Notes: generated by a model not told the origin, from the sequence alone. Counted from the stretch's first letter, positions 1,826 through 16,320 are shown. The stretch is DNA of 51,446 nucleotides from Bryobacteraceae bacterium (GCA_041485845.1 JBGPKH010000001.1:1-51446); one strand, 5' to 3'. Made by a program: numbers and translations.

Positions 1826-2966
1826 CTACGGCTTCCCCAGCGAGCACAGCGGATCCCCTAACACCACGCCCTGCCAGCTTAGAAACGGCATCGCCAGATA
1901 GTAGCTTTCTGGCCCTCGTAGTAGGCGGGCAGCAGGTAGTCCGGCCGCACGCACGCCACAAGGCACGGCTCATACACGTTCCCTGACGCGCCCGCCGCCC
2001 CCTCGTGGATGGCGTCCGCGCTCAAGCCCTGGGGCGAACCGGCGAACAGGTGCTTCGTATCCTTCCACGAGGTGTAGGTCCAATCGTCCAGCGGACGCTT
2101 CATGGTGCGGGCGTTGGTGGAGACGAACTCGGTGGCGATCGCGCCGGGCAGCCACTGGAATCCCAGGTGACGCCGCTTGCGGTTCTCGTCGTTCGATCCC
2201 CAGGAGGCGTAGCCGATCACGTCTTTCAGGTCGTAGAGCACCCTCGCGCTTTCGTCCACGGTGGTGCCGGCGGCGGGTAAGAGGATCGCGGCGTTGGGCA
2301 GCCAGTTGTCGCCCACTTCTTCGTTGCCGGAGCGGAGATCCAGCACGAATTTGCCGTGGTTCCGCGCTGCCAGCGCGCGGCCGATCATGGCTTTGACGTC
2401 GTTGACATCGAACGCGGCGAGCCTGGTCGCCAGGTAGATGGGGAATTGCGGGTGCCGGAACGGCGCATCGCGCTTCATGAAATACGGATTGGCAACCGGG
2501 CCTGCGCGCGGGTATTTCGCTCCCTTCAGTACTCGGCGTTCATGCGCGAGCCCCCGCCCTGCACTTTGAGCGGAGTCCCCGGGGTGGTCGCGATGTACAG
2601 CACACTCTCCGGAAGCGCCGCTTTCTTGAGGCACTCCGCGACCGGCCGCTCGATCTGCTGTTGGCAGACCGGCCACGGGATTTCCTCAGCGGAGGTGGTA
2701 TCGAGGTAGCAGACATGGGGCGCGGGGATGGAACGCCGCTGGCGGTAGTAGTCGCCGATCTGCCGGGAATCCGCGTCGTTGCGGTTGACCACCAGGAGCA
2801 GGTTCGCGCCGGTTTGCGCGTGCAGGCGGGGAAGCAGGGCCAAAAGCGGCAGGAGCAAGCCGACAGCGTGGATAGCCGCCGGGTTGGAGGTGCGGTTCCT
2901 TTTGTTACAATAAGTACCACACGACGGGCGTGAGCGAGATTCATTATTTCTATCCCGCCGATTCAT
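1826..2966 (-). pseudogene. TIGR03790-family secreted protein, disrupted by two apparent 1-nt frameshifts
   Basis: Three consecutive reading frames carry one protein. The N-terminal part (2526-2966) has a signal peptide plus LLVVNRNDADSRQIGDYYRQRRSIP...TPLKVQGGG. The middle part (1879-2676) reads ...AKYPRAGPVANPYF...GYASWGSNDE...GASGNVYEPCL...LLPAYYEG. The third frame reads PESYYLAMPFLSWQGVVLGDPLCSLGKP* and ends at 1826. The shifts lie at about 2553-2560 (a G5/C5 run) and about 1905-1912. Confidence 0.7.
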
Positions 2967-3012
2967 GATTTAACTGGCAGCCGGCCGGCAGCCCCAACGC
3001 CTCCGGCAACTT

Positions 3013-3909
3013 ATGGACTTCGATCAGCTTCACACGTTCCTCGAAATCGTCCGGCTGAAGAGTTTTTCGAAAGCCGCACAGACGTGTTACCGTACGCAGC
3101 CGGCCATCAGCGCCCAGGTGCGGCAGCTCGAGCAGGAACTCCACACCGAGCTGTTCGAGCGCTTCGGCAGCCGGATTTCACTCACCACGGCCGGCCGCAT
3201 CTTCGCCGAATACGCCGAGCAGTTACTCGATCTGCGCCGCCGCGCGCAGGACGCCATCGCCGAGCTGGAGACGAATCCCCGCGGCGAGCTGGTGATCGCG
3301 GCCAACGAAGCCACCTGCATCTACGTGCTGCCTGAGGTCTTTTCCGAATACCGGCAGCTCTTCCCGGCGGTGCAGCTCCAGGTCAACCGCTCCTTCGGGG
3401 CGCACGTAGTCGAAGCGGTGCTGGACAATTCGGCGGATTTCGGACTCACGCAACTGCCGGTGGAGGAGAAGCGCCTGCAAGTGGTGACCGTCCACAACGA
3501 CGAGATCCGGCTGATCGTTCCGGCGCGCCATGCGCTGGCCGACAAGAGGACGGTCAAGCCCGAGGATCTGGTGGAATACTACCTGGTGCTCCCCCAACAG
3601 GGAAAGACGCGCACGCGGCTGAATGAGTGGCTGTCGCCTGTGGAGGACGAAATCCGCATCTCCATGGAGCTGGACTCCACCGAAATGATGAAGCGGTTCG
3701 TCATGGCCGGGCTGGGAGTGAGCTTTCTGGCGGTCTCGAACTGCCGCGAGGAGATGGCCTCCGGAAAACTGCGCGCGGTGGCGCTTTCGCCGGAACCCAT
3801 GCTGCGCCGGTTGGGTTTAGTCTATCGTAAGGACAAGGCACTGTCGAAGGCCGCCCTGGGCTTCATCCAGGTCGTGCTGGATAATGTGAAAGACCGGGTG
3901 GTGGCTTGA
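3013..3909 (+). CDS. LysR-family transcriptional regulator
   Basis: 298 aa. The N-terminal wHTH reads LHTFLEIVRLKSFSKAAQTCYRTQPAISAQVRQLEQEL, followed by a LysR substrate-binding domain. Divergent from the TIGR03790 gene. Confidence 0.9.
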   Translation: MDFDQLHTFLEIVRLKSFSKAAQTCYRTQPAISAQVRQLEQELHTELFERFGSRISLTTAGRIFAEYAEQLLDLRRRAQDAIAELETNPRGELVIAANEATCIYVLPEVFSEYRQLFPAVQLQVNRSFGAHVVEAVLDNSADFGLTQLPVEEKRLQVVTVHNDEIRLIVPARHALADKRTVKPEDLVEYYLVLPQQGKTRTRLNEWLSPVEDEIRISMELDSTEMMKRFVMAGLGVSFLAVSNCREEMASGKLRAVALSPEPMLRRLGLVYRKDKALSKAALGFIQVVLDNVKDRVVA

Positions 3910-4343
3910 TGACTTGCAAACGCTGCCGGAAGAGCTTTGGAGCGGACCAAGCCCGCTGTCCGCATTGCGGGGAGCCGAAGCCGGACTCATCGGGGCTCTT
4001 CCAGACCTCGACCGTCCTGATCTCCGCTGAGGGGACGGACCAGGTCTACCGGTCGGTGGAGGACGTTCCGGCGCGCCTGCGAACCAAGCTGCTCAAGTCC
4101 ACCAACGGCGCCAACTCCGCCACCATCCTGATCGCCGACCAGCGGGGGCGGAAGGAAATCGCCAAGGCCATGCGCAACCTGCCGGGCCCCGCGCAACGCC
4201 GCCTGATGCACTCCATCCTCGGCGCCGAAGCTTCGCAAAACGCCCTGCGCTGGCTCACGCCGGGCCGCAAACGGGCGATTCTCGCCTTGGTTGGCGCACT
4301 CACCCTGGGGCTCATCGCGCTGGTATTCCTGCATCGCTGGTAG
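3909..4343 (+). CDS. Hypothetical membrane-anchored protein with N-terminal zinc-ribbon (CxxC...CxxC)
   Basis: MTCKRCRKSFGADQARCPHCGEP at the N-terminus and a C-terminal hydrophobic helix AILALVGALTLGLIALVFL. The start overlaps the LysR stop (TGATG). Confidence 0.6.
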   Translation: MTCKRCRKSFGADQARCPHCGEPKPDSSGLFQTSTVLISAEGTDQVYRSVEDVPARLRTKLLKSTNGANSATILIADQRGRKEIAKAMRNLPGPAQRRLMHSILGAEASQNALRWLTPGRKRAILALVGALTLGLIALVFLHRW

Positions 4344-4516
4344 CGCGACGTCCCATATACCGCTGACTTACGCGCGCGGCTCCGCATGCCGGTTCCGAGG
4401 CGCGACCGCGAGAAGCTGTGAAGAACTGTGGCCCGATTGGTTTTTTGGGCTTCGGAGGGAGCAGTTTGTCAGTTGTGCGCCCTACAGTTTTCCCGCGGTC
4501 CCACCGATTCTTGGGC

Positions 4517-4882
4517 ATGGACCAACGTCGTGAGCCCCGTTTCGCTACCAATCAATCCGTCGTCGTCACGGTTCTGGGCGAGCACGCCAGGCGGGAGACC
4601 GCCGTGGTGAAGAATGCTTCCGCCCGCGGACTGGCGATCGAGGTGCCGGGACCGATCGCTCCCGGTACTGCCCTCAAGATCGAATTCGAGGATTCGACGG
4701 TGCTGGGCGAAGCGGTATACTGCGGCGGCGGACCGGATTCCCATCTGGTGGGAGTGGAACTCGACCAGGTGATTTGCAGCTTGACTCAGCTTGGCAGGAA
4801 GCTACAGGAGTTTGCGGACGGGCGCAATGTCAGGACGGCAGGTGGCGCACGCCTTGAAAAACAGAACACGCCAATACCATGA
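4517..4882 (+). CDS. PilZ-domain protein
   Basis: MDQRREPRF (RxxxR) and VKNASARGLAI (D/N-x-S-x-x-G) are the two c-di-GMP-binding PilZ motifs. Start placed at ATG 4517 rather than the ORF-track 4418. Confidence 0.65.
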   Translation: MDQRREPRFATNQSVVVTVLGEHARRETAVVKNASARGLAIEVPGPIAPGTALKIEFEDSTVLGEAVYCGGGPDSHLVGVELDQVICSLTQLGRKLQEFADGRNVRTAGGARLEKQNTPIP

Positions 4883-8018: not shown

Positions 8019-8405
8019 ATGAGCCAGCCCGTGAAACTCTCCGACGGCCTGGTCCTCGAGGCGCGACTCGCAGGCGATATTTTGGAGCGTTCCATTGCGG
8101 GGCAGGTCGAATTCTGGGCGCGACTCGGCCGGTCCGTTGACCTGTTGCTCGAAGGACAGCAGGTATTGGCGTTGTGCCGGAGCGCCACGGCTCGCCCGCT
8201 GTCCGCCTGCCTGGAGGCCGTGGATTCTCAAAAAGGACGCCAGCGCGTCGCGGACTTCCTCCAAAGCCAGCCGTTTCCTCACTACGAACCACACCCCGAT
8301 CGCCGCGGCCTGCTGGTACGCATCGATCAGGATGGCCGGCGAACGGTGGGGCGCTTCGTGAATCGGCAGTTCCGCCCGGCAAGAGTCAAGGCCAGGCAGC
8401 GGTGA
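8019..8405 (+). CDS. ParD-like antitoxin (partner of zeta/AAA-kinase-like toxins)
   Basis: MSQPVKLSDGLVLEARLAGDILERSIAGQVEFWARLGR resembles the ParD-like family pattern (V.isdeL...A...A....RS.agQiEhWArlGr). The stop overlaps the start of the next gene (GTGA). Confidence 0.7.
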   Translation: MSQPVKLSDGLVLEARLAGDILERSIAGQVEFWARLGRSVDLLLEGQQVLALCRSATARPLSACLEAVDSQKGRQRVADFLQSQPFPHYEPHPDRRGLLVRIDQDGRRTVGRFVNRQFRPARVKARQR

Positions 8406-8986
8406 GCCACCCGCTCGACCTGCGCCCCATGGTCGTCGCCATTGCAGGACCGGATGGAGCGGGCAAGACGACGTTCTACCGCGCCCATCTCCAACCGGCC
8501 GGGCTGCGCTCTGTCAATGCTGATTTAATCGCCCGGGAATTGAACATCGATCCCTATGCCGCCGCACGAGTGGCCGATGCCCTGCGACAGGAACTGGTAC
8601 GCCAACGGGAAAGCTTCGTCTTCGAGACCGTATTCTCCGGCCCGGTGGGCGAAAAGCTGGCCTTTCTCCAAGACGCCGCGCAGGCCGGTTACACTACGAT
8701 CTTGTGTTTTATCGGGACTTCCGGACCGGATGTCTCCGAACAGCGCGTGTCCATGCGCGTCTCCCAAGGCGGGCACGATGTTCCGAGCGAGAAGCTGATC
8801 GCGCGGTTCCCACGCACCCGGGCTAATCTTAAGGCCGCTCTCCACGAGCTACCCAATGTCTGGGTCTTCGACAATGACGATCTGCGAACCCCATTCCGTC
8901 TGGTTGCGGTTCTTGAAAACGGCCGGGTTGTCAAGCTGCGGCGGCCGGTTCCAAAGTGGCTCAAGCCGCTGCTGCCGAGACGGTGA
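8402..8986 (+). CDS. Zeta-toxin-like / AAA-family P-loop kinase (toxin partner)
   Basis: Walker A VVAIAGPDGAGKTT, then ...ESFVFETVFSG..., ...ILCFIGT...SEQRVSMRVSQGGHDVPSEKLIARFPR, typical of the zeta-toxin/COG4185 fold. Start is GTG 8402 (or ATG 8429). Confidence 0.8.
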   Translation: MSHPLDLRPMVVAIAGPDGAGKTTFYRAHLQPAGLRSVNADLIARELNIDPYAAARVADALRQELVRQRESFVFETVFSGPVGEKLAFLQDAAQAGYTTILCFIGTSGPDVSEQRVSMRVSQGGHDVPSEKLIARFPRTRANLKAALHELPNVWVFDNDDLRTPFRLVAVLENGRVVKLRRPVPKWLKPLLPRR

Positions 8987-10941: not shown

Positions 10942-12873
10942 TCACTCCGCAATTCGCAGTTGAATCCGCGATCCGTCCTCGCCGCCGAAGTACACGCGCT
11001 GCATGGCCTTCACGAAGTCGCTCGACAAAGCCTTGGGGATCTCCATGAACTTCTGCGGATTGCGGTCGGTCAGCGGGAACCACGAGCTCTGAATCTGCAC
11101 CATGATGCGATGGCCCGGCCGGAACGTGTGCGCGATGTCGGGCAGGTTGAACGTGATGCGATCGGGCTTGCCGGGCTCGAAGGGCGCCGGCTTCTCGAAG
11201 CTCTTGCGGAACTTGCCGCGGAACGGCTCGCCGCGGATGAGCTGCTGGTAGCCTCCGATGGGAACCGGCGAGGGCGTGGCGGTTTGGCCGGGTTGCTGCG
11301 GGAGACTGTTGTAGTCGGGCGAATCGCCGGGATAGACATCGATCACCTTCACCACGAAGTCGGCATCGGTGCCGGTAGTGGAGACTTTCAGGTCCACCGA
11401 GATCGGTCCGAAGACATTCACGTCGCGATCCAGCACGCCGGTCTTGTAGACCAGCACGTCGGGACGCGCGGCGGCGAAGCGCTGGTCCTCGGTCATGTAG
11501 CTGTTGAGCACGCCCATGGTGACGCGGCCGATGTAGGGCACCGGCTTGTTCGGGTCGGCCAGGTATTCGTCAAATGCGGCTTGCGCGGGCTGCTGCCACG
11601 AGAGCTTGCCCTTGCCATCCAGATACAGGCTGGTGGGCCGGACATCGGGGGGAGGCCATTTCTCGAAACGGCGCCACTGGTTCATGCCGGTCTGAAAGAG
11701 GTACGCCCGCGGAAACTTTCCGTCGCCCTTGCCTTTCAGGTAGAACTGAAAGAACGGGAACTCGATCCTCTCTCGGTAGTACTGCGCGGTCTTCGACCCG
11801 AAGTTGACATTGCCCAAACGGTCGCCATCGCCGCGCGAGAAGCCGCCGTGGTTCCACGGACCCATGACCAGCATGTCCACGGCGGGCGGCGTGTTCTTCT
11901 CCATGAAGTCGAACTGGCGCAGAGGCCCTTGCGGATCTTCGGTGTCGTACCAGCCGCCCACCAGCATGACCGCGGGCTTGATGGCCTTCAAATGTTTCCA
12001 GATGGCGCGCGACTGCCACACTTCGTCGTAAGTGGTGTGGTCGATGTTCAGATTCCAATACGGCTGCTTGTGCTTGAAATACTTCTCGTCGGCATTGGCC
12101 AGCGAGCCCATCTCCAGATAAAACTCGTAGCCGTCTGGCGTGCCGTACTGAAACGGCAGCGTGGGCTGCGGCGGCGCGGGGTCGCCCTCGCGGCCGCGGA
12201 ATCCCATGTAAAAGCTGAAGCGGTGGGCCAGCATGAAGGCGCCGTTGTGATAAACGTCGTCGCCCATGTAGTAATCGGTGACGGGCGCCTGCGGGGCCAC
12301 CGCCACCAGCGCGGGATGCGCGTCGATCATGCCGGCGGTCACGTAAAAGCCCGGCTGCGAGATCCCGTACATCCCGGCCTTGCCGGTATTGCCGGGAACG
12401 TTCTTGACAAGCCAGTCGATGGTGTCGTAAGTGTCGGTGCTCTCGTCGGTGTCTTTGGGACCGCTCTTGTTGGGCTTGTGCGGGCGGATGAGGACGTAGT
12501 CGCCTTCGCTCATGAATCGGCCGCGGACGTCCTGGTAGGCGAAGATGTATTTCTCGCGAAAGAACAGTTCCGAAGGCCCGAGCGTGGCGCGGTACTGGTC
12601 GATGCCGTATGGCGCGACGTTGTAGCCGGTGCGCTGCATCAGGATGGGGTAGGTCCTGGCGTCGGTGAAGACGTCCTTGGGAACGTAGACGGAGGTGAAG
12701 AGCTTCACGCCATCGCGCATGGCGATGCGGTACTCGAATTTGGTGTAGTTCTCGCGAACGGCAGCGGCGCCCGGAGCGTTTGGGGGCGGCGCGGGTGTGG
12801 GCGCCGCGGCTCCGCCACGGCCCTGGGCGGCAAGCTGGGAAGCGAAGAGCAGCAAAGCGGACAAAGTGCGCAT
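10942..12873 (-). CDS. CocE/NonD-family hydrolase / Xaa-Pro dipeptidyl-peptidase (S15)
   Basis: Start at MRTLSALLLFASQLAAQ (signal peptide). ...IAMRDGVKLFTSVYVPKD...YPILMQRTGYNVAPYG, nucleophile region AGMYGISQPGFY, and a C-terminal beta-sandwich ending ...HRIMVQIQSSWFPL.DRNPQ. Confidence 0.9.
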   Translation of the reverse strand: MRTLSALLLFASQLAAQGRGGAAAPTPAPPPNAPGAAAVRENYTKFEYRIAMRDGVKLFTSVYVPKDVFTDARTYPILMQRTGYNVAPYGIDQYRATLGPSELFFREKYIFAYQDVRGRFMSEGDYVLIRPHKPNKSGPKDTDESTDTYDTIDWLVKNVPGNTGKAGMYGISQPGFYVTAGMIDAHPALVAVAPQAPVTDYYMGDDVYHNGAFMLAHRFSFYMGFRGREGDPAPPQPTLPFQYGTPDGYEFYLEMGSLANADEKYFKHKQPYWNLNIDHTTYDEVWQSRAIWKHLKAIKPAVMLVGGWYDTEDPQGPLRQFDFMEKNTPPAVDMLVMGPWNHGGFSRGDGDRLGNVNFGSKTAQYYRERIEFPFFQFYLKGKGDGKFPRAYLFQTGMNQWRRFEKWPPPDVRPTSLYLDGKGKLSWQQPAQAAFDEYLADPNKPVPYIGRVTMGVLNSYMTEDQRFAAARPDVLVYKTGVLDRDVNVFGPISVDLKVSTTGTDADFVVKVIDVYPGDSPDYNSLPQQPGQTATPSPVPIGGYQQLIRGEPFRGKFRKSFEKPAPFEPGKPDRITFNLPDIAHTFRPGHRIMVQIQSSWFPLTDRNPQKFMEIPKALSSDFVKAMQRVYFGGEDGSRIQLRIAE

Positions 12874-12906
12874 GGCGATTGAGTTGATTCTAGCCCAACC
12901 GTGGCC
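12804..12906. repeat. Direct repeat copy A (103 bp), the functional 5' end and upstream region of the S15 peptidase gene
   Basis: Hand alignment with 14473-14575 gives equal length, 97 of 103 identical, and all 6 differences are transitions. Confidence 0.9.
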
Positions 12907-13339
12907 GGGCAGGCGCCGTTTGTCGATATCAGCGTGAACGCCGGCTTGCCCGAAACGCCTCCACCTTGTAGTTCGCCGGATCCGCGGCATTTCGGGATTG
13001 ATTCCGGTAACGATTCCGCCAAGCCTCAGGCGCTCTGGTTACGGGGGCGGCGCCGAAAGAAACTTCGGAGGCTCCATCATTGATCCACGTGCCCGGTGCA
13101 ATCCGGATCGATATGCCGGCGAACTTTCCCGGCCGCTGGAATGCCTGGCGCGAAAGTCATCCGGATGTGAAGTTGATTATGCGCGGCGCCAGCTTCAAGG
13201 GCCGCGAGCTCGCCACAGTAAATCTCAGCCATGCCGATTCGTGGCAGCGACTTTTGCGGTGCGCAACTCCCCGGCGCCAATCCGGGATATATGGTGGAAA
13301 TGATTCCCGAGAATAGAACCTGCGAGGTGCAATGCAGGT

Positions 13340-13648
13340 ATGGTTCGCGCTAGCAGAACCGTTTTAGTCGAGTACAAAGAGGGTCGCTGGACGGTTCGCA
13401 GGGTGCTTTACAAGCGTGCGCCCCGAACCTTCGCCACCAAGTCCGAAGCGGTGGCAGCCGCCAAGGCCATCGCGCTCGCCACGCAGCCGAGTCAGGTCAC
13501 CATCATAGGCCGCGATGGCCGTCTGCAGCGTGGTTTTGTCTACGGTCTCCCCAGAATCCCGCGGTCTCCCTATAGGGGCGCGATTTCCGACCAAATCGAG
13601 CGCGCAGTCCTGAAGGTCTCCGACATGATGGAAGCCCGAGGCGAGTGA
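13340..13648 (+). CDS. DUF2188-like small protein
   Basis: 102 aa. ...GRWTVRRV....RTFATKSEAVAAAKAIALATQPSQVTIIGRDGRLQ fits the DUF2188 pattern (gW.V......f.t..eAi..A..iA......l.ihgrDGri). GAGGTG lies upstream. The stop overlaps the next start (GTGA). Confidence 0.55.
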   Translation: MVRASRTVLVEYKEGRWTVRRVLYKRAPRTFATKSEAVAAAKAIALATQPSQVTIIGRDGRLQRGFVYGLPRIPRSPYRGAISDQIERAVLKVSDMMEARGE

Positions 13649-14262
13649 GCGCTCCATTAGGTTCGCCGAACGTCTTCATCAATTGCCCTTTTGACAAGGC
13701 CTATCGGCCCGTGTTCGAGGCGGTGGTGTTCACGGTCTACAATCTCGGCTTCGCTCCCCGATGTGCGCTCGAGGTCGATGACGGCAGTCAGGTGCGCATT
13801 GAGAAGATCGCCACCATGATCGCTCAGTGCCCGTACGGCGTGCACGATCTATCGTGGGTCGGCATCGATCCCAAGACGCGGCTGCCCAGATTCAATATGC
13901 CGCTGGAGCTTGGACTGTACTTGGGATGCCAGAGGTTTGGCGGCAAATCGCAGCGCGCCAAGAACTGTCTGATATTGGATCGCCACCCGTTTCGATATCG
14001 AGCCTTCATGTCCGACATCTCGGGCCAGGACATCCACGCCTACAATGGAACGCCCAGGGGGGCAATTGCCGCCGTGCGGGATTGGCTCTGCGCCGCGTCC
14101 AAACGCGGCGAGTTGCCCGGCGGCGCCGAAATGTACGCCCGGTATTGCCTGTTCAGACGCCAACTGCCTGGAATGTGCCGCCAATTCAAGCGCCGCCCCT
14201 CCGAACTTACCTACATGGACTACTCCGAAATGGCGCTGATCTGGCTGAGCCGAAACCGTTAG
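13645..14262 (+). CDS. Uncharacterised protein with a TIR-like / nucleoside-2-deoxyribosyltransferase-like N-terminal domain (inference)
   Basis: 205 aa. The beta-alpha pattern VFINCPFDKAYRPVFEAVVFTVYNLGFAPRCALE..., RIEKIATMIAQCPYGVHDLS, and PRFNMPLELGLYLG (conserved Glu88) resembles flavodoxin-fold TIR-like domains. The C-terminal roughly 60 aa match nothing I know. Codon usage is host-like and the gene is coupled to the upstream gene. Confidence 0.6.
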   Translation: MSAPLGSPNVFINCPFDKAYRPVFEAVVFTVYNLGFAPRCALEVDDGSQVRIEKIATMIAQCPYGVHDLSWVGIDPKTRLPRFNMPLELGLYLGCQRFGGKSQRAKNCLILDRHPFRYRAFMSDISGQDIHAYNGTPRGAIAAVRDWLCAASKRGELPGGAEMYARYCLFRRQLPGMCRQFKRRPSELTYMDYSEMALIWLSRNR

Positions 14263-14472
14263 ACCTTGTTACGAAACAACGTTGCCGTAGGCTTTTTTCT
14301 TGGTGTTCCGGCCGCAGGCCCATTGGGCACTCCCTTCGGTCGCGTCCCGGCAGGAGGTAAGTTACTGCGCCGCGACCAAAGGGAGCGAGGAGAAGGTTGT
14401 TTCATGACGAGCCCCCTTAGTGCGGCACCAGCCGCCAATCGCTCCACCGGTTGAGCCTCTGGCCGGTGCGGC

Positions 14473-14575
14473 CCGCGGCTCCGCCACGGCCCTGGGCGGC
14501 AGGCTGGGAAGCGAAGAGCGGCAAAGCAGACAAAGTGCGCACGGCGATTGAGTTGATTCCAGCCCAACCGCGGCC
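14473..14575. repeat. Direct repeat copy B (103 bp), a dead duplicate of the peptidase 5' end
   Basis: See copy A. The peptidase ATG is GTG here, and the reading frame runs into unrelated sequence after the repeat boundary. ORF-track entries 14417-14605 and 14259-14567 are artefacts of this duplicate. Confidence 0.9.
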
Positions 14576-14629
14576 TATGCTTGGAGTGGCACTCAGTTCA
14601 TTCAATCATTTCAGGAAGGAACGTATCGC

Positions 14630-14974
14630 ATGGCAGAAACCGGCCTCAAAGGTCCCTTTGCGCTTACCGAACCGGCGCTCCAGCAGGAGGTGAACGAGAA
14701 GTCCCCGGGCGCTTACGCCCTGGATCAGTCCCACGATTCCGGCGGCTTCCACATCAGCTACGTCGGCCGGTCGGACACCGATGTGAACGAACGGCTGCGC
14801 CAGCACGTGGGCAAATACAAGCGCTTCAAGTTCGATTACTACGCGACCCCCAGGGATGCTTTCGACAAGGAATGCGGGCTCTACCACGACTTCAACCCGC
14901 CGGCCAAGATCAACCATCCCGAGCGGCCTTCGCACTCGGGGTGGAAATGCCCGCGGTGCAAGATCTTCGGGTAG
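14630..14974 (+). CDS. Small GIY-YIG-like nuclease-domain protein with C-terminal CxxC
   Basis: 114 aa. PGAYAL...HISYVGRSDTDVNERLRQHV (GIY...YIG-like with the conserved R), FDKECGLYHDF (catalytic-type Glu), NHPERP...WKCPRCKIFG. AGGAAGGA RBS upstream. Confidence 0.6.
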   Translation: MAETGLKGPFALTEPALQQEVNEKSPGAYALDQSHDSGGFHISYVGRSDTDVNERLRQHVGKYKRFKFDYYATPRDAFDKECGLYHDFNPPAKINHPERPSHSGWKCPRCKIFG

Positions 14975-15830: not shown

Positions 15831-15946
15831 AACTCCGTCACTCGGGGCGTAGTGGGATCTGCGTAACCAGTGTACTCCATGGCGGGGCAGTGACGCCGTG
15901 CTTCGATTCGGTGCAAGGTCACCGGCTTTTCTACCGCACGCTCCAG

Positions 15947-16252
15947 GTCCCCATCGCTGCCATCCCGTGCCGTGGGCCTCGGCGATGTCGCGTCGCGCCC
16001 CGTAAATCACACGATTACCAGCAAACGCTCCCGCGGCCCGATTTCCTATAGGTTCGGCACGCCACGTGCATTTTCGATCCATCGGGAATTCCGGTGTTGC
16101 TGAAGTTCGGCGGCTGTCCATTATCGCGTGCCGGCCGGACAGGAATCCGTTGCCCCAAATGGGGCATCGCCGTGAACCTGGTGGCGCATATCCGGCAGGG
16201 GCGCGACGCGACATCGCCGAGGCCAACGGCACGGGATGGCAAGCGATGGGAC
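15947..16252. repeat. MITE-like element: 55-bp terminal inverted repeats around a 196-bp core
   Basis: The left arm (15947-16001) and right arm (16198-16252) are reverse complements, apart from 1 mismatch and one compensated 1-nt indel (hand alignment). It lies in the intergenic region between the DUF4159 gene and the histidine kinase. Confidence 0.75.
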
Positions 16253-16320
16253 TTGGCGTTTGCCGCGGTTGCGACGGCAGCGCGCTATGATCCAGAGAGA
16301 CGGCGCAGAATGAGAGACAA

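Follow-up and report, generated by a model that had tools for sequence, protein, structure and literature searches.

The region described here lies within a 51,446-nt stretch of DNA from a sediment acidobacterium (Bryobacteraceae bacterium, GCA_041485845.1 JBGPKH010000001.1:1-51446), which is referred to as the window. A secreted peptidase gene and a small GIY-YIG-like gene point away from each other, and between them is a two-gene operon within an interval bracketed by direct repeats of 103 bp. A preliminary description had taken the repeats and the DNA that they enclose for a 1.57-kb cassette, which arrived by single-crossover (Campbell-type) integration or an att-like duplication and might still be mobilised. 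Relatives were gathered by querying GTDB with the peptidase (one genome per species) and JGI metagenome contigs with the 114-amino-acid right-hand neighbour. All window proteins were then mapped onto the fetched loci (131 related loci). Genomes and contigs other than the window are cited by L numbers. The features of the region are as follows.

10942-12873, minus strand: gene for an S15-family (X-Pro dipeptidyl-peptidase-like) secreted peptidase of 643 amino acids, with its working ATG at 12873-12871
12804-12906, minus strand: repeat copy A, running from 33 bp before the peptidase ATG through the first 70 bases of coding sequence (-33 to +70)
12907-13282: lineage-specific stretch of 376 bp, absent from L087 and L086 in a three-way alignment
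13283-13339, plus strand: conserved upstream region of the DUF2188 operon, 57 bp, with 84% identity to L086, L002 and L003 just upstream of their DUF2188 gene
13340-13648, plus strand: DUF2188 gene, 102 amino acids, its stop codon overlapping the GTG start of the next gene (GTGA)
13645-14262, plus strand: gene for a 205-amino-acid protein of a very large uncharacterised family, with a predicted flavodoxin/TIR-like fold
14263-14414: dispersed palindromic element of ~150 bp, like a miniature inverted-repeat transposable element (MITE) or repetitive extragenic palindrome (REP), directly after the stop codon of the 205-amino-acid gene
14438-14472: linker from the cargo to copy B, the old right-hand junction, with the motifs TCGCTCCAC and GCCGG in common with L086 and L087
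14473-14575, minus strand: repeat copy B, a peptidase 5' end surviving as a non-functional relic, joined to ancestral intergenic DNA
14576-14629, plus strand: ancestral intergenic region upstream of the GIY-YIG-like gene, collinear with the intergenic sequence of empty sites
14630-14974, plus strand: small GIY-YIG-like gene, 114 amino acids, the conserved right-hand neighbour at empty and occupied sites

The duplicated start of the peptidase gene

Copies A and B align without gaps and are identical at 97 of 103 positions (MAFFT and a repeat finder; BLAST E = 3e-42). This agrees with the earlier alignment by hand, as does the fact that all six differences are transitions. Read from A to B, they are A>G at 12833/14502 and 12851/14520, G>A at 12859/14528, and T>C at 12873/14542, 12891/14560 and 12902/14571. 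If transitions normally make up about two thirds of changes, six out of six has a p of only ~0.09, so the pattern needs no special explanation. A particular mutational process, such as deamination, is unneeded at n = 6.

One way in which the cassette proposal could have failed is that the 103-mer might be a dispersed repeat unrelated to this gene. This has been ruled out. There is no third copy in the window, the sequence is found in the 131 related loci at the orthologous position only, and its depth in metagenomes is that of two single-copy contigs.

Copy A is the working start of the peptidase gene, as had been proposed. It includes a conserved block, ATTGAGTTGATTCTA, and the signal peptide, MRTLSALLLFASQLAAQG, and is contiguous with the peptidase gene in the window, in L087 and at all empty sites (see below). 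The protein that it begins belongs to the S15 family, with Peptidase_S15 (4.5e-46) and PepX_C (7.3e-28) domains in Pfam. Copy B is indeed a dead duplicate. Its ATG has become GTG (M1V), two leucines within the hydrophobic core have become prolines (L8P and L14P), and the reading V-RTLSALPLFASQPAAQG... carries on into unrelated DNA, ending with a stop at 14417.

The block ATTGAGTTGATTCTA (12880-12895 in A, 14549-14564 in B) lies just upstream of the peptidase ATG. It is kept in every A copy and in every near-clade empty site, and it also survives in the B relics of L086 and L087, which are otherwise decayed. The block is probably a control element shared by the divergent genes. By eye, it offers a minus-strand TAGAAT upstream of the peptidase ATG (5/6 match) and a plus-strand TTGATT-17 nt-TATGCT upstream of the GIY-YIG-like gene (8/12 match). 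A sigma-70 promoter scan of 12700-14750 returned no site at threshold, and terminators were fewer there than in shuffles.

Is the arrangement real? The window genome is scarce in sediment metagenomes, with a depth of merely 3-7x in public runs, and this speaks for an assembly artefact of a metagenome-assembled contig, for example misjoined strain variants. However, the longest identical run between A and B is 29 nt and they share no 31-mer, so that assemblers that work with 31-mers cannot mix them up. Metagenome checks were made on Logan contigs of eight runs (X1-X8), contig-level data that drop rare variants. Error-free contigs among them span the left junction of peptidase, A and insert (12723-13080 in X1, 12781-13045 in X5) and the right junction of insert, B and flank (14416-14603 in X6, 14348-14586 in X7, 14420-14570 in X8). 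In addition, a contig from an independent JGI assembly (L132) has the 205-amino-acid gene, B, the GIY-YIG-like gene and a DUF4159 gene in the same order at 99.6% identity, and L087 has the same architecture. With contigs across the junctions in five separate runs together with L132, an artefact can be dismissed.

Empty and occupied sites in relatives

The cassette proposal predicted an empty site in related genomes, meaning a single repeat copy, with the peptidase and GIY-YIG-like genes as immediate divergent neighbours. Such sites exist. Six relatives have this arrangement: the metagenome-assembled genomes L007, L009 and L013, the metagenome contigs L089 and L127, and L133/L134. In L127 and L133 the sequence reads ...GATTGAGTTGATTCTA.CCCAAC....GCC/CTATGCTTGG...ATG(GIY). 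Here the sequence of A runs on into the right flank of B, and therefore A plus the DNA to the right of B rebuild the ancestral locus. The intergenic region at 14576-14629 of the window matches the empty-site sequence TATGCTTGG...ATG of L127, L133, L089, L007, L009 and L013.

Occupied sites exist as well. The order in L087 is peptidase (94% amino acid identity to the window), A, ~38 bp, DUF2188 gene, 205-amino-acid gene, a linker of ~40 bp, B relic and GIY-YIG-like gene. In L086, L002 and L003 it is DUF2188 gene, 205-amino-acid gene, linker, B relic and GIY-YIG-like gene, with response-regulator and SpoIIE genes to the left. The relic of these three holds a minus-strand open reading frame (ORF), MRTLSVYMLFVCRLAAQGRS..., which ends in a stop codon. 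The orthologous relics lie at 2167-2233 of L087 and 4740-4828 of L086. Across the alignments of the window, L086 and L087, the relic has its left boundary, and A its right boundary, at matching positions. The linker is clearly homologous between L086 and L087, from the stop codon of the 205-amino-acid gene to the relic.

How old is the insertion? Nucleotide identity between the window and L087 is 87% for the peptidase gene, 80% for the DUF2188 gene, 85% for the 205-amino-acid gene and 85.5% for the GIY-YIG-like gene. Between the window and L086 it is 87% (DUF2188), 87% (205-amino-acid gene) and 84% (GIY-YIG-like), and between L087 and L086 it is 82.6%, 88.7% and 88.4% for the same three genes. 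The empty-site genomes are farther from the window (76-81% for the GIY-YIG-like gene, 78-85% for the peptidase gene). The same linker, relic and boundaries in lineages that are ~85% identical, together with the congruent divergence of cargo and flanks, point to an ancient event and vertical inheritance. The simplest reading of these sequences would be one insertion in the common ancestor of the three lineages; nothing suggests that the cargo spread horizontally in recent times.

Why do A and B stay 94% identical in the window? Their identity in L087 is 80% within the best-matching 56 nt and 56% across the full 103 columns, and only the block CGATTGAGTTGATTCTATCC near the GIY-YIG-like side of the relic is intact. 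A clue comes from five sites (12841, 12847, 12853, 12857 and 12893). At these, A and B of the window agree with each other, whereas A of L087, B of L087, B of L086 and most empty sites share another state. Since one A copy and two B copies agree on this second state, it was present at the duplication. With the second state ancestral, the state seen in the window was copied between A and B later. The sequence pattern is most likely due to homogenisation of A and B by gene conversion in the window lineage, and since A is under selection the direction was probably from A to B. Re-duplication or re-integration would explain the five sites less simply. Four of the six remaining A/B differences are derived in B, all of them AT>GC (M1V, L8P, L14P and one in the leader). 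This would fit relaxed constraint on B since the conversion.

Concerted evolution by gene conversion is familiar from duplicated tuf genes and rRNA operons. The likeness to such short intrachromosomal repeats is that two copies in one genome share lineage-specific substitutions that are absent from the orthologues in sister lineages. The difference is that the partner in the window is a non-functional relic of 103 bp and not a second functional gene. In other words, a dead relic of this size can keep step with its live twin, most likely via gene conversion. The case cautions against dating by repeat identity: 94% suggested a young event, whereas the comparative data show an old one.

The composite interval and its cargo

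The 1566 bp between the repeats (12907-14472) had been described as a gene pair plus about 430 bp with no convincing gene. The pair is there, and so are 433 bp of non-coding DNA to its left. A further 210 bp to its right had not been itemised. The interval is a composite of the operon, the lineage-specific 376 bp and the dispersed palindromic element.

The left-hand DNA (12907-13339) has no family match, no homologue and no tblastx match, and its 376-bp part has no blastn match either. An ORF within it (13080-13316) likewise has no homologue and no family match, and the 376-bp stretch has no significant RNA structure (fold z-scores -0.8 and +0.3). Exactly at the ends of the 376 bp is a weak 14-nt inverted repeat (12905-12918 and 13272-13285, 79%). 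This could be the mark of another small inserted element, or it could be chance in GC-rich DNA.

The palindromic element has a 19-nt terminal inverted repeat (14265-14283 and 14393-14411, 79%) and a 15-nt inner hairpin (14330-14344 and 14371-14385, 93%). Its metagenome depth is 60-190x against 3-7x for the genome, a 20-40x excess, and many contigs diverge at its ends into various flanks. It is absent from this spot in L086 and L087. No further copy was found in the window, in the related loci fetched or in plasmids, the element being present only in the same sediment runs, and it matches no Rfam family. It thus has the terminal inverted repeats and multiple contexts of MITE/REP-like elements, its copies being known from metagenome depth and loose ends only. 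It also resembles such elements in being short and non-coding, in its internal hairpin and in its position after a stop codon. With no second full-length copy retrieved, no target-site duplication or parent transposon was identified for it. As a dispersed ~150-bp repeat of sediment Acidobacteriota, it is a promising lead. Beside it, at 14415/14416, a 6-nt indel (CTTAGT) is polymorphic between samples: it is seen in a contig of run X7, and in L132, which is 6 nt longer.

The two genes of the operon had been labelled DUF2188-like and TIR-like, and the first label stands on firmer ground than the second. The DUF2188 protein is a member of PF09954 (41.5 bits against a Pfam cutoff of 22, E = 1.5e-10) and also matches the PADLOC candidate PDC-S16 (2e-10) and PHROG 3220. 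The 205-amino-acid protein has no sequence match in Pfam, NCBIfam, PHROG, PADLOC or PDB (the last also searched with a 46-sequence profile), and no sequence profile places it in the TIR family. Its own family comprises >7,900 clusters from Acidobacteriota, mostly of exactly 205 amino acids. The AlphaFold2 (AF2) model is a confident one (pLDDT 84, pTM 0.84) and shows an alpha/beta fold of the flavodoxin type, plus helices at the C-terminus. Among PDB folds, Foldseek ranks highest the TIR domains of SPARTA TIR-APAZ and AbTir, and these matches are weak (E = 6.5e-3, TM-score 0.48) and intermixed with NQO1 and CheY folds. An N-terminal strand, VFINCPFD, resembles the first strand of TIR domains. 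Glu88 is nearly invariant in the family and lies at the start of a predicted helix (87-98); in the model it may be topologically equivalent to the catalytic Glu of TIR domains. Because the fold match is weak and mixed with other folds, "TIR-like" is a lead and not a statement of membership.

The operon is found in other places. A DUF2188 gene precedes the 205-amino-acid gene in seven of eight other genomic contexts, and in the remaining one (L139/L140) none is called in the 480-bp upstream gap. The neighbours are SpoIIE, GAF and response-regulator genes (L002, L004, L005), an MFS transporter gene (L136), aminotransferase and chlorite dismutase genes (L138) or an NAD synthase gene (L139). With different neighbours each time, the operon does relocate on evolutionary time scales. 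A search for the insert in other contexts with the same ends, as the cassette proposal invites, did not find it: homology between contexts stops at the two coding regions, without conserved ends, and no flanking duplication surrounds the operon in five other contexts (L004, L005, L136, L138, L139).

A separate observation concerns L086, where a second, diverged module (283-1904) lies upstream of the main one (1895-4700). Its parts are a paralogue of the response regulator, what remains of a DUF2188 gene, and a paralogue of the 205-amino-acid gene at 71% identity. Direct repeats of 300 nt there are 71-80% identical.

What might the cargo do? DUF2188 has been noted beside TIR/Thoeris and CapH/CapP-regulated (CBASS-type) defence operons (bioRxiv 10.64898/2025.12.03.692087; 10.1101/2022.04.27.489752). 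A toxin/defence-type or a signalling role would be plausible. The cargo is the other promising lead: a very large family of 205-amino-acid proteins, without annotation in any library searched, nearly always follows DUF2188 and does so in scattered contexts.

Origin of the arrangement and its surroundings

The locus is probably an old duplicative-insertion scar, now fixed and immobile, that was made by host recombination and in which A and B later underwent conversion. In an ancestor from which at least three lineages of Bryobacteraceae descend, the small GIY-YIG-like gene and the S15 peptidase gene would have been divergent and ~90 bp apart. DNA with the translationally coupled DUF2188/205-amino-acid operon would then have inserted between them, leaving the 103-bp target segment (-33 to +70) on both sides. 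Through copy A the peptidase gene would have retained its 5' leader, start and signal peptide, and through copy B the GIY-YIG-like gene its proximal upstream DNA. Without a coding role, B would have decayed, so that the sister lineages conserve only the right-hand block beside the GIY-YIG-like gene. In the window lineage, A and B would have been homogenised later (A-to-B conversion), after which the six transitions arose. The interval would also have been remodelled, with the palindromic element landing after the stop codon of the 205-amino-acid gene; the 376 bp upstream of the operon occur in this lineage only.

We infer that the founding duplication came about by host recombination (entry of a circle by single crossover, or unequal crossing-over), with no dedicated integrase or transposase. 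A single crossover would be the simplest form. The duplication would have been tolerated because both divergent genes retained their control regions. The locus offers a clean natural example of a small operon wedged between divergent genes with neither of them inactivated, the duplicated 103 bp leaving each its 5' control region.

The preliminary description had reported no integrase, transposase or tRNA, and none was found. Pfam domain scans for recombinases covered the ORFs of the interval and the larger ORFs within ~10 kb on either side. No integrase or transposase turned up there, in L087 or in the available 3.6 kb of L086, and the window contains no tRNA, tmRNA or Rfam family. No terminal inverted repeats pair the DNA from 12907 onwards with that leading up to 14472. 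A transposon or insertion sequence has been rejected on these grounds: there is no transposase, and a target duplication of the transposase type is excluded by the length of 103 bp (versus 2-15 bp) and the lack of terminal inverted repeats. An integron gene cassette has also been rejected, there being no integrase and no Rfam match or structure at the boundary other than the palindromic element, which is unrelated. Neither the excised circle nor the deletion junction that the cassette proposal led one to look for (a circle junction or an A/B deletion joint) was seen in the Logan contigs of the eight runs.

How does this compare with known systems? In Campbell-type integration, as with suicide plasmids and circular fragments that enter via RecA, the direct repeats are the homologous segment, one copy restores the gene, the other is a truncated dead copy, and relatives have the empty site. 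All of this is seen here. However, the window shows no circular form, vector backbone or recent event, the scar is common to lineages that are ~15% diverged, and the circle would need to have carried 103 bp of this peptidase 5' end already. Integrase-mediated islands and prophages with a replacement gene end also have a direct duplication of a gene terminus around foreign cargo, with the gene left intact. The window differs from these in having no integrase, tRNA, phage or conjugation genes, a cargo of only a two-gene operon, and repeats that far exceed most att core identities. The earlier proposal of a Campbell-type or att-like origin therefore holds in part. An insertion flanked by a peptidase 5' duplication is there and the geometry fits, with a Campbell-type single crossover as one possible origin. 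The geometry matches Campbell-type and att-flanked islands, but a recombinase and recurrence at other loci are lacking, and no excision products were seen in the contigs of the eight runs. This is an ordinary kind of rearrangement scar, here documented by empty and occupied alleles.

Several points weigh against an old scar made by host recombination. The founding mechanism is not observable at this age. The metagenome data are at the level of contigs only, where rare excision products are invisible. The homology of the window linker to those of L086 and L087 extends over only ~35 bp and was assessed by visual inspection of alignments. The case for gene conversion rests on five sites, and a recent re-integration from a close relative gives the same pattern. 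The L086 contig ends 3.6 kb to the left of the operon without reaching the peptidase gene, so the original insert may have been larger, with a recombinase that was later lost. Finally, L127 is empty although no other locus comes nearer to the window on the GIY-YIG-like side (87.6% over 153 nt); the peptidase part of this 1356-bp contig is among the most distant (77.8%). The L127 locus could reflect loss of the insert by recombination between A and B, and hence some continuing instability. It may also be a recombinant locus or a chimeric contig.

What if the scar is instead the remnant of an integrase-mediated element? In that case an island or prophage-like element with a replacement 5' end would have integrated site-specifically at the start of the peptidase gene, the 103-bp repeats would represent attL and attR, and the lineages of the window and L087 would later have lost the integrase and most of the cargo. 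The direct repeats, the empty site and the gene start that was restored all fit. The DNA to the left of the operon in L086 is different for at least 3.6 kb, up to the contig end, and an unrelated genome (L005) has the operon beside tyrosine integrase, resolvase and PIN/MazE genes. However, the window, L087 and those 3.6 kb of L086 lack an integrase, and there is neither a tRNA nor a phage gene. Next to the operon in L086 are ordinary signalling genes, for a response regulator and SpoIIE, and such genes border it in L004 and L005 as well. An integrase remnant is thus unlikely, though of the alternatives it is the one to be taken most seriously.

A second possibility is a separate, recent re-integration of the Campbell type. 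A circle formed by recombination between A and B in a close relative would have entered an empty site via RecA and the 103-bp homology, and the 6% difference between A and B would be the divergence of donor and recipient. This would account for the 94% identity of A and B in the window against 56-80% in L087. Empty-site alleles are also available in related lineages, including L127 with its GIY-YIG-like side so close to the window. On the other hand, no relative is more similar to the window in its cargo genes than in its flanks, and the contigs of the eight runs hold no circle or deletion junction. The donor would have to be within ~6% of the recipient and already scarred; these extra steps explain no more than gene conversion does. 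Recent re-integration is accordingly improbable.

Another Terriglobia genome bears on two further alternatives. When 82 peptidase loci were screened for 5' duplications, only L081 (a 4.9-Mb contig) was positive. At its orthologous peptidase gene, ~260 bp of the 5' end is duplicated 5.16 kb upstream and joined to a C-terminal fragment of the adjacent outer-membrane protein gene. The repeats lie at 2895-3056 and 8058-8218 (also 2253-2321 and 3513-3581), with a gene for a 1331-amino-acid FG-GAP/Ig-like protein between. The relic is 91% identical to the gene over 175 bp and ~57% identical in the signal-peptide part. This uneven identity suggests conversion there too. Perhaps the peptidase 5' end is a recurrent hotspot of duplicative insertion that works by an undescribed recombination mechanism, with two independent events (the window clade and L081) and a relic kept similar by conversion; the cargo could be a novel minimal module of the TIR type, acting in defence or as a toxin, that moves to new sites with no recombinase of its own. 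Such a hotspot, with such a module, is an improbable reading too.

The L081 architecture can also be read as support for a tandem duplication at the window locus. Its left end would have lain within the peptidase gene, and once redundant copies were lost the operon would be left between the two genes and B at the duplication joint. Tandem duplication with random loss, or unequal crossing-over, shares with the window a truncated 5' fragment upstream of the intact copy and other DNA between them. The difference is that the L081 insert contains a fragment of the adjacent native gene, whereas the window cargo is not near the locus in any empty-site relative, where no operon is found close to the GIY-YIG-like gene. 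No second operon copy or remnant lies beyond the GIY-YIG-like gene in the window, L086 or L087, and at least three events would be required. A tandem duplication is very unlikely.

Even less credit can be given to a cassette that is still active and mobile without an integrase of its own, with the repeats as att-like sites and mobilisation in trans, which is close to what the preliminary description had in mind. In its favour, the operon lies between unrelated genes in every genome examined. However, the repeats are host target sequence and not cassette ends, the operon has neither conserved ends nor a flanking duplication elsewhere, the scar is common to lineages that are ~15% diverged, and no excision products were seen in the contigs of the eight runs. 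The notion of a discrete 1.57-kb cassette that can still be mobilised is not supported, in view of the scar in ~85%-identical lineages, the congruent divergence, the composite nature of the interval and the lack of a duplication in five other contexts.

Orthologues of the peptidase with 70-94% amino acid identity occur in more than 80 Bryobacteraceae/Terriglobia contigs, and the GIY-YIG-like protein is 89-91% identical in L086, L087 and L133. The GIY-YIG label of the latter comes from a match below the Pfam threshold (14.9 bits against a cutoff of 22.6, E = 0.033, residues 43-65 only). The protein also matches PADLOC PDC-S14 (8e-6), and among its 118 homologues is one distant homologue with PF01541.

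Two minor observations were made farther out. An ORF with Zeta_toxin/AAA_33 kinase-like domains (2.8e-11) lies at 8174-8986 on the plus strand, at a distance of ~4 kb from the scar; an esterase-like gene is downstream of it. On the other side, between the DUF4159 and histidine-kinase genes, is a 66-nt inverted repeat (15936-16001 and 16198-16263) that is 83% complementary, has 196 nt between its arms and occurs at single-copy metagenome depth.

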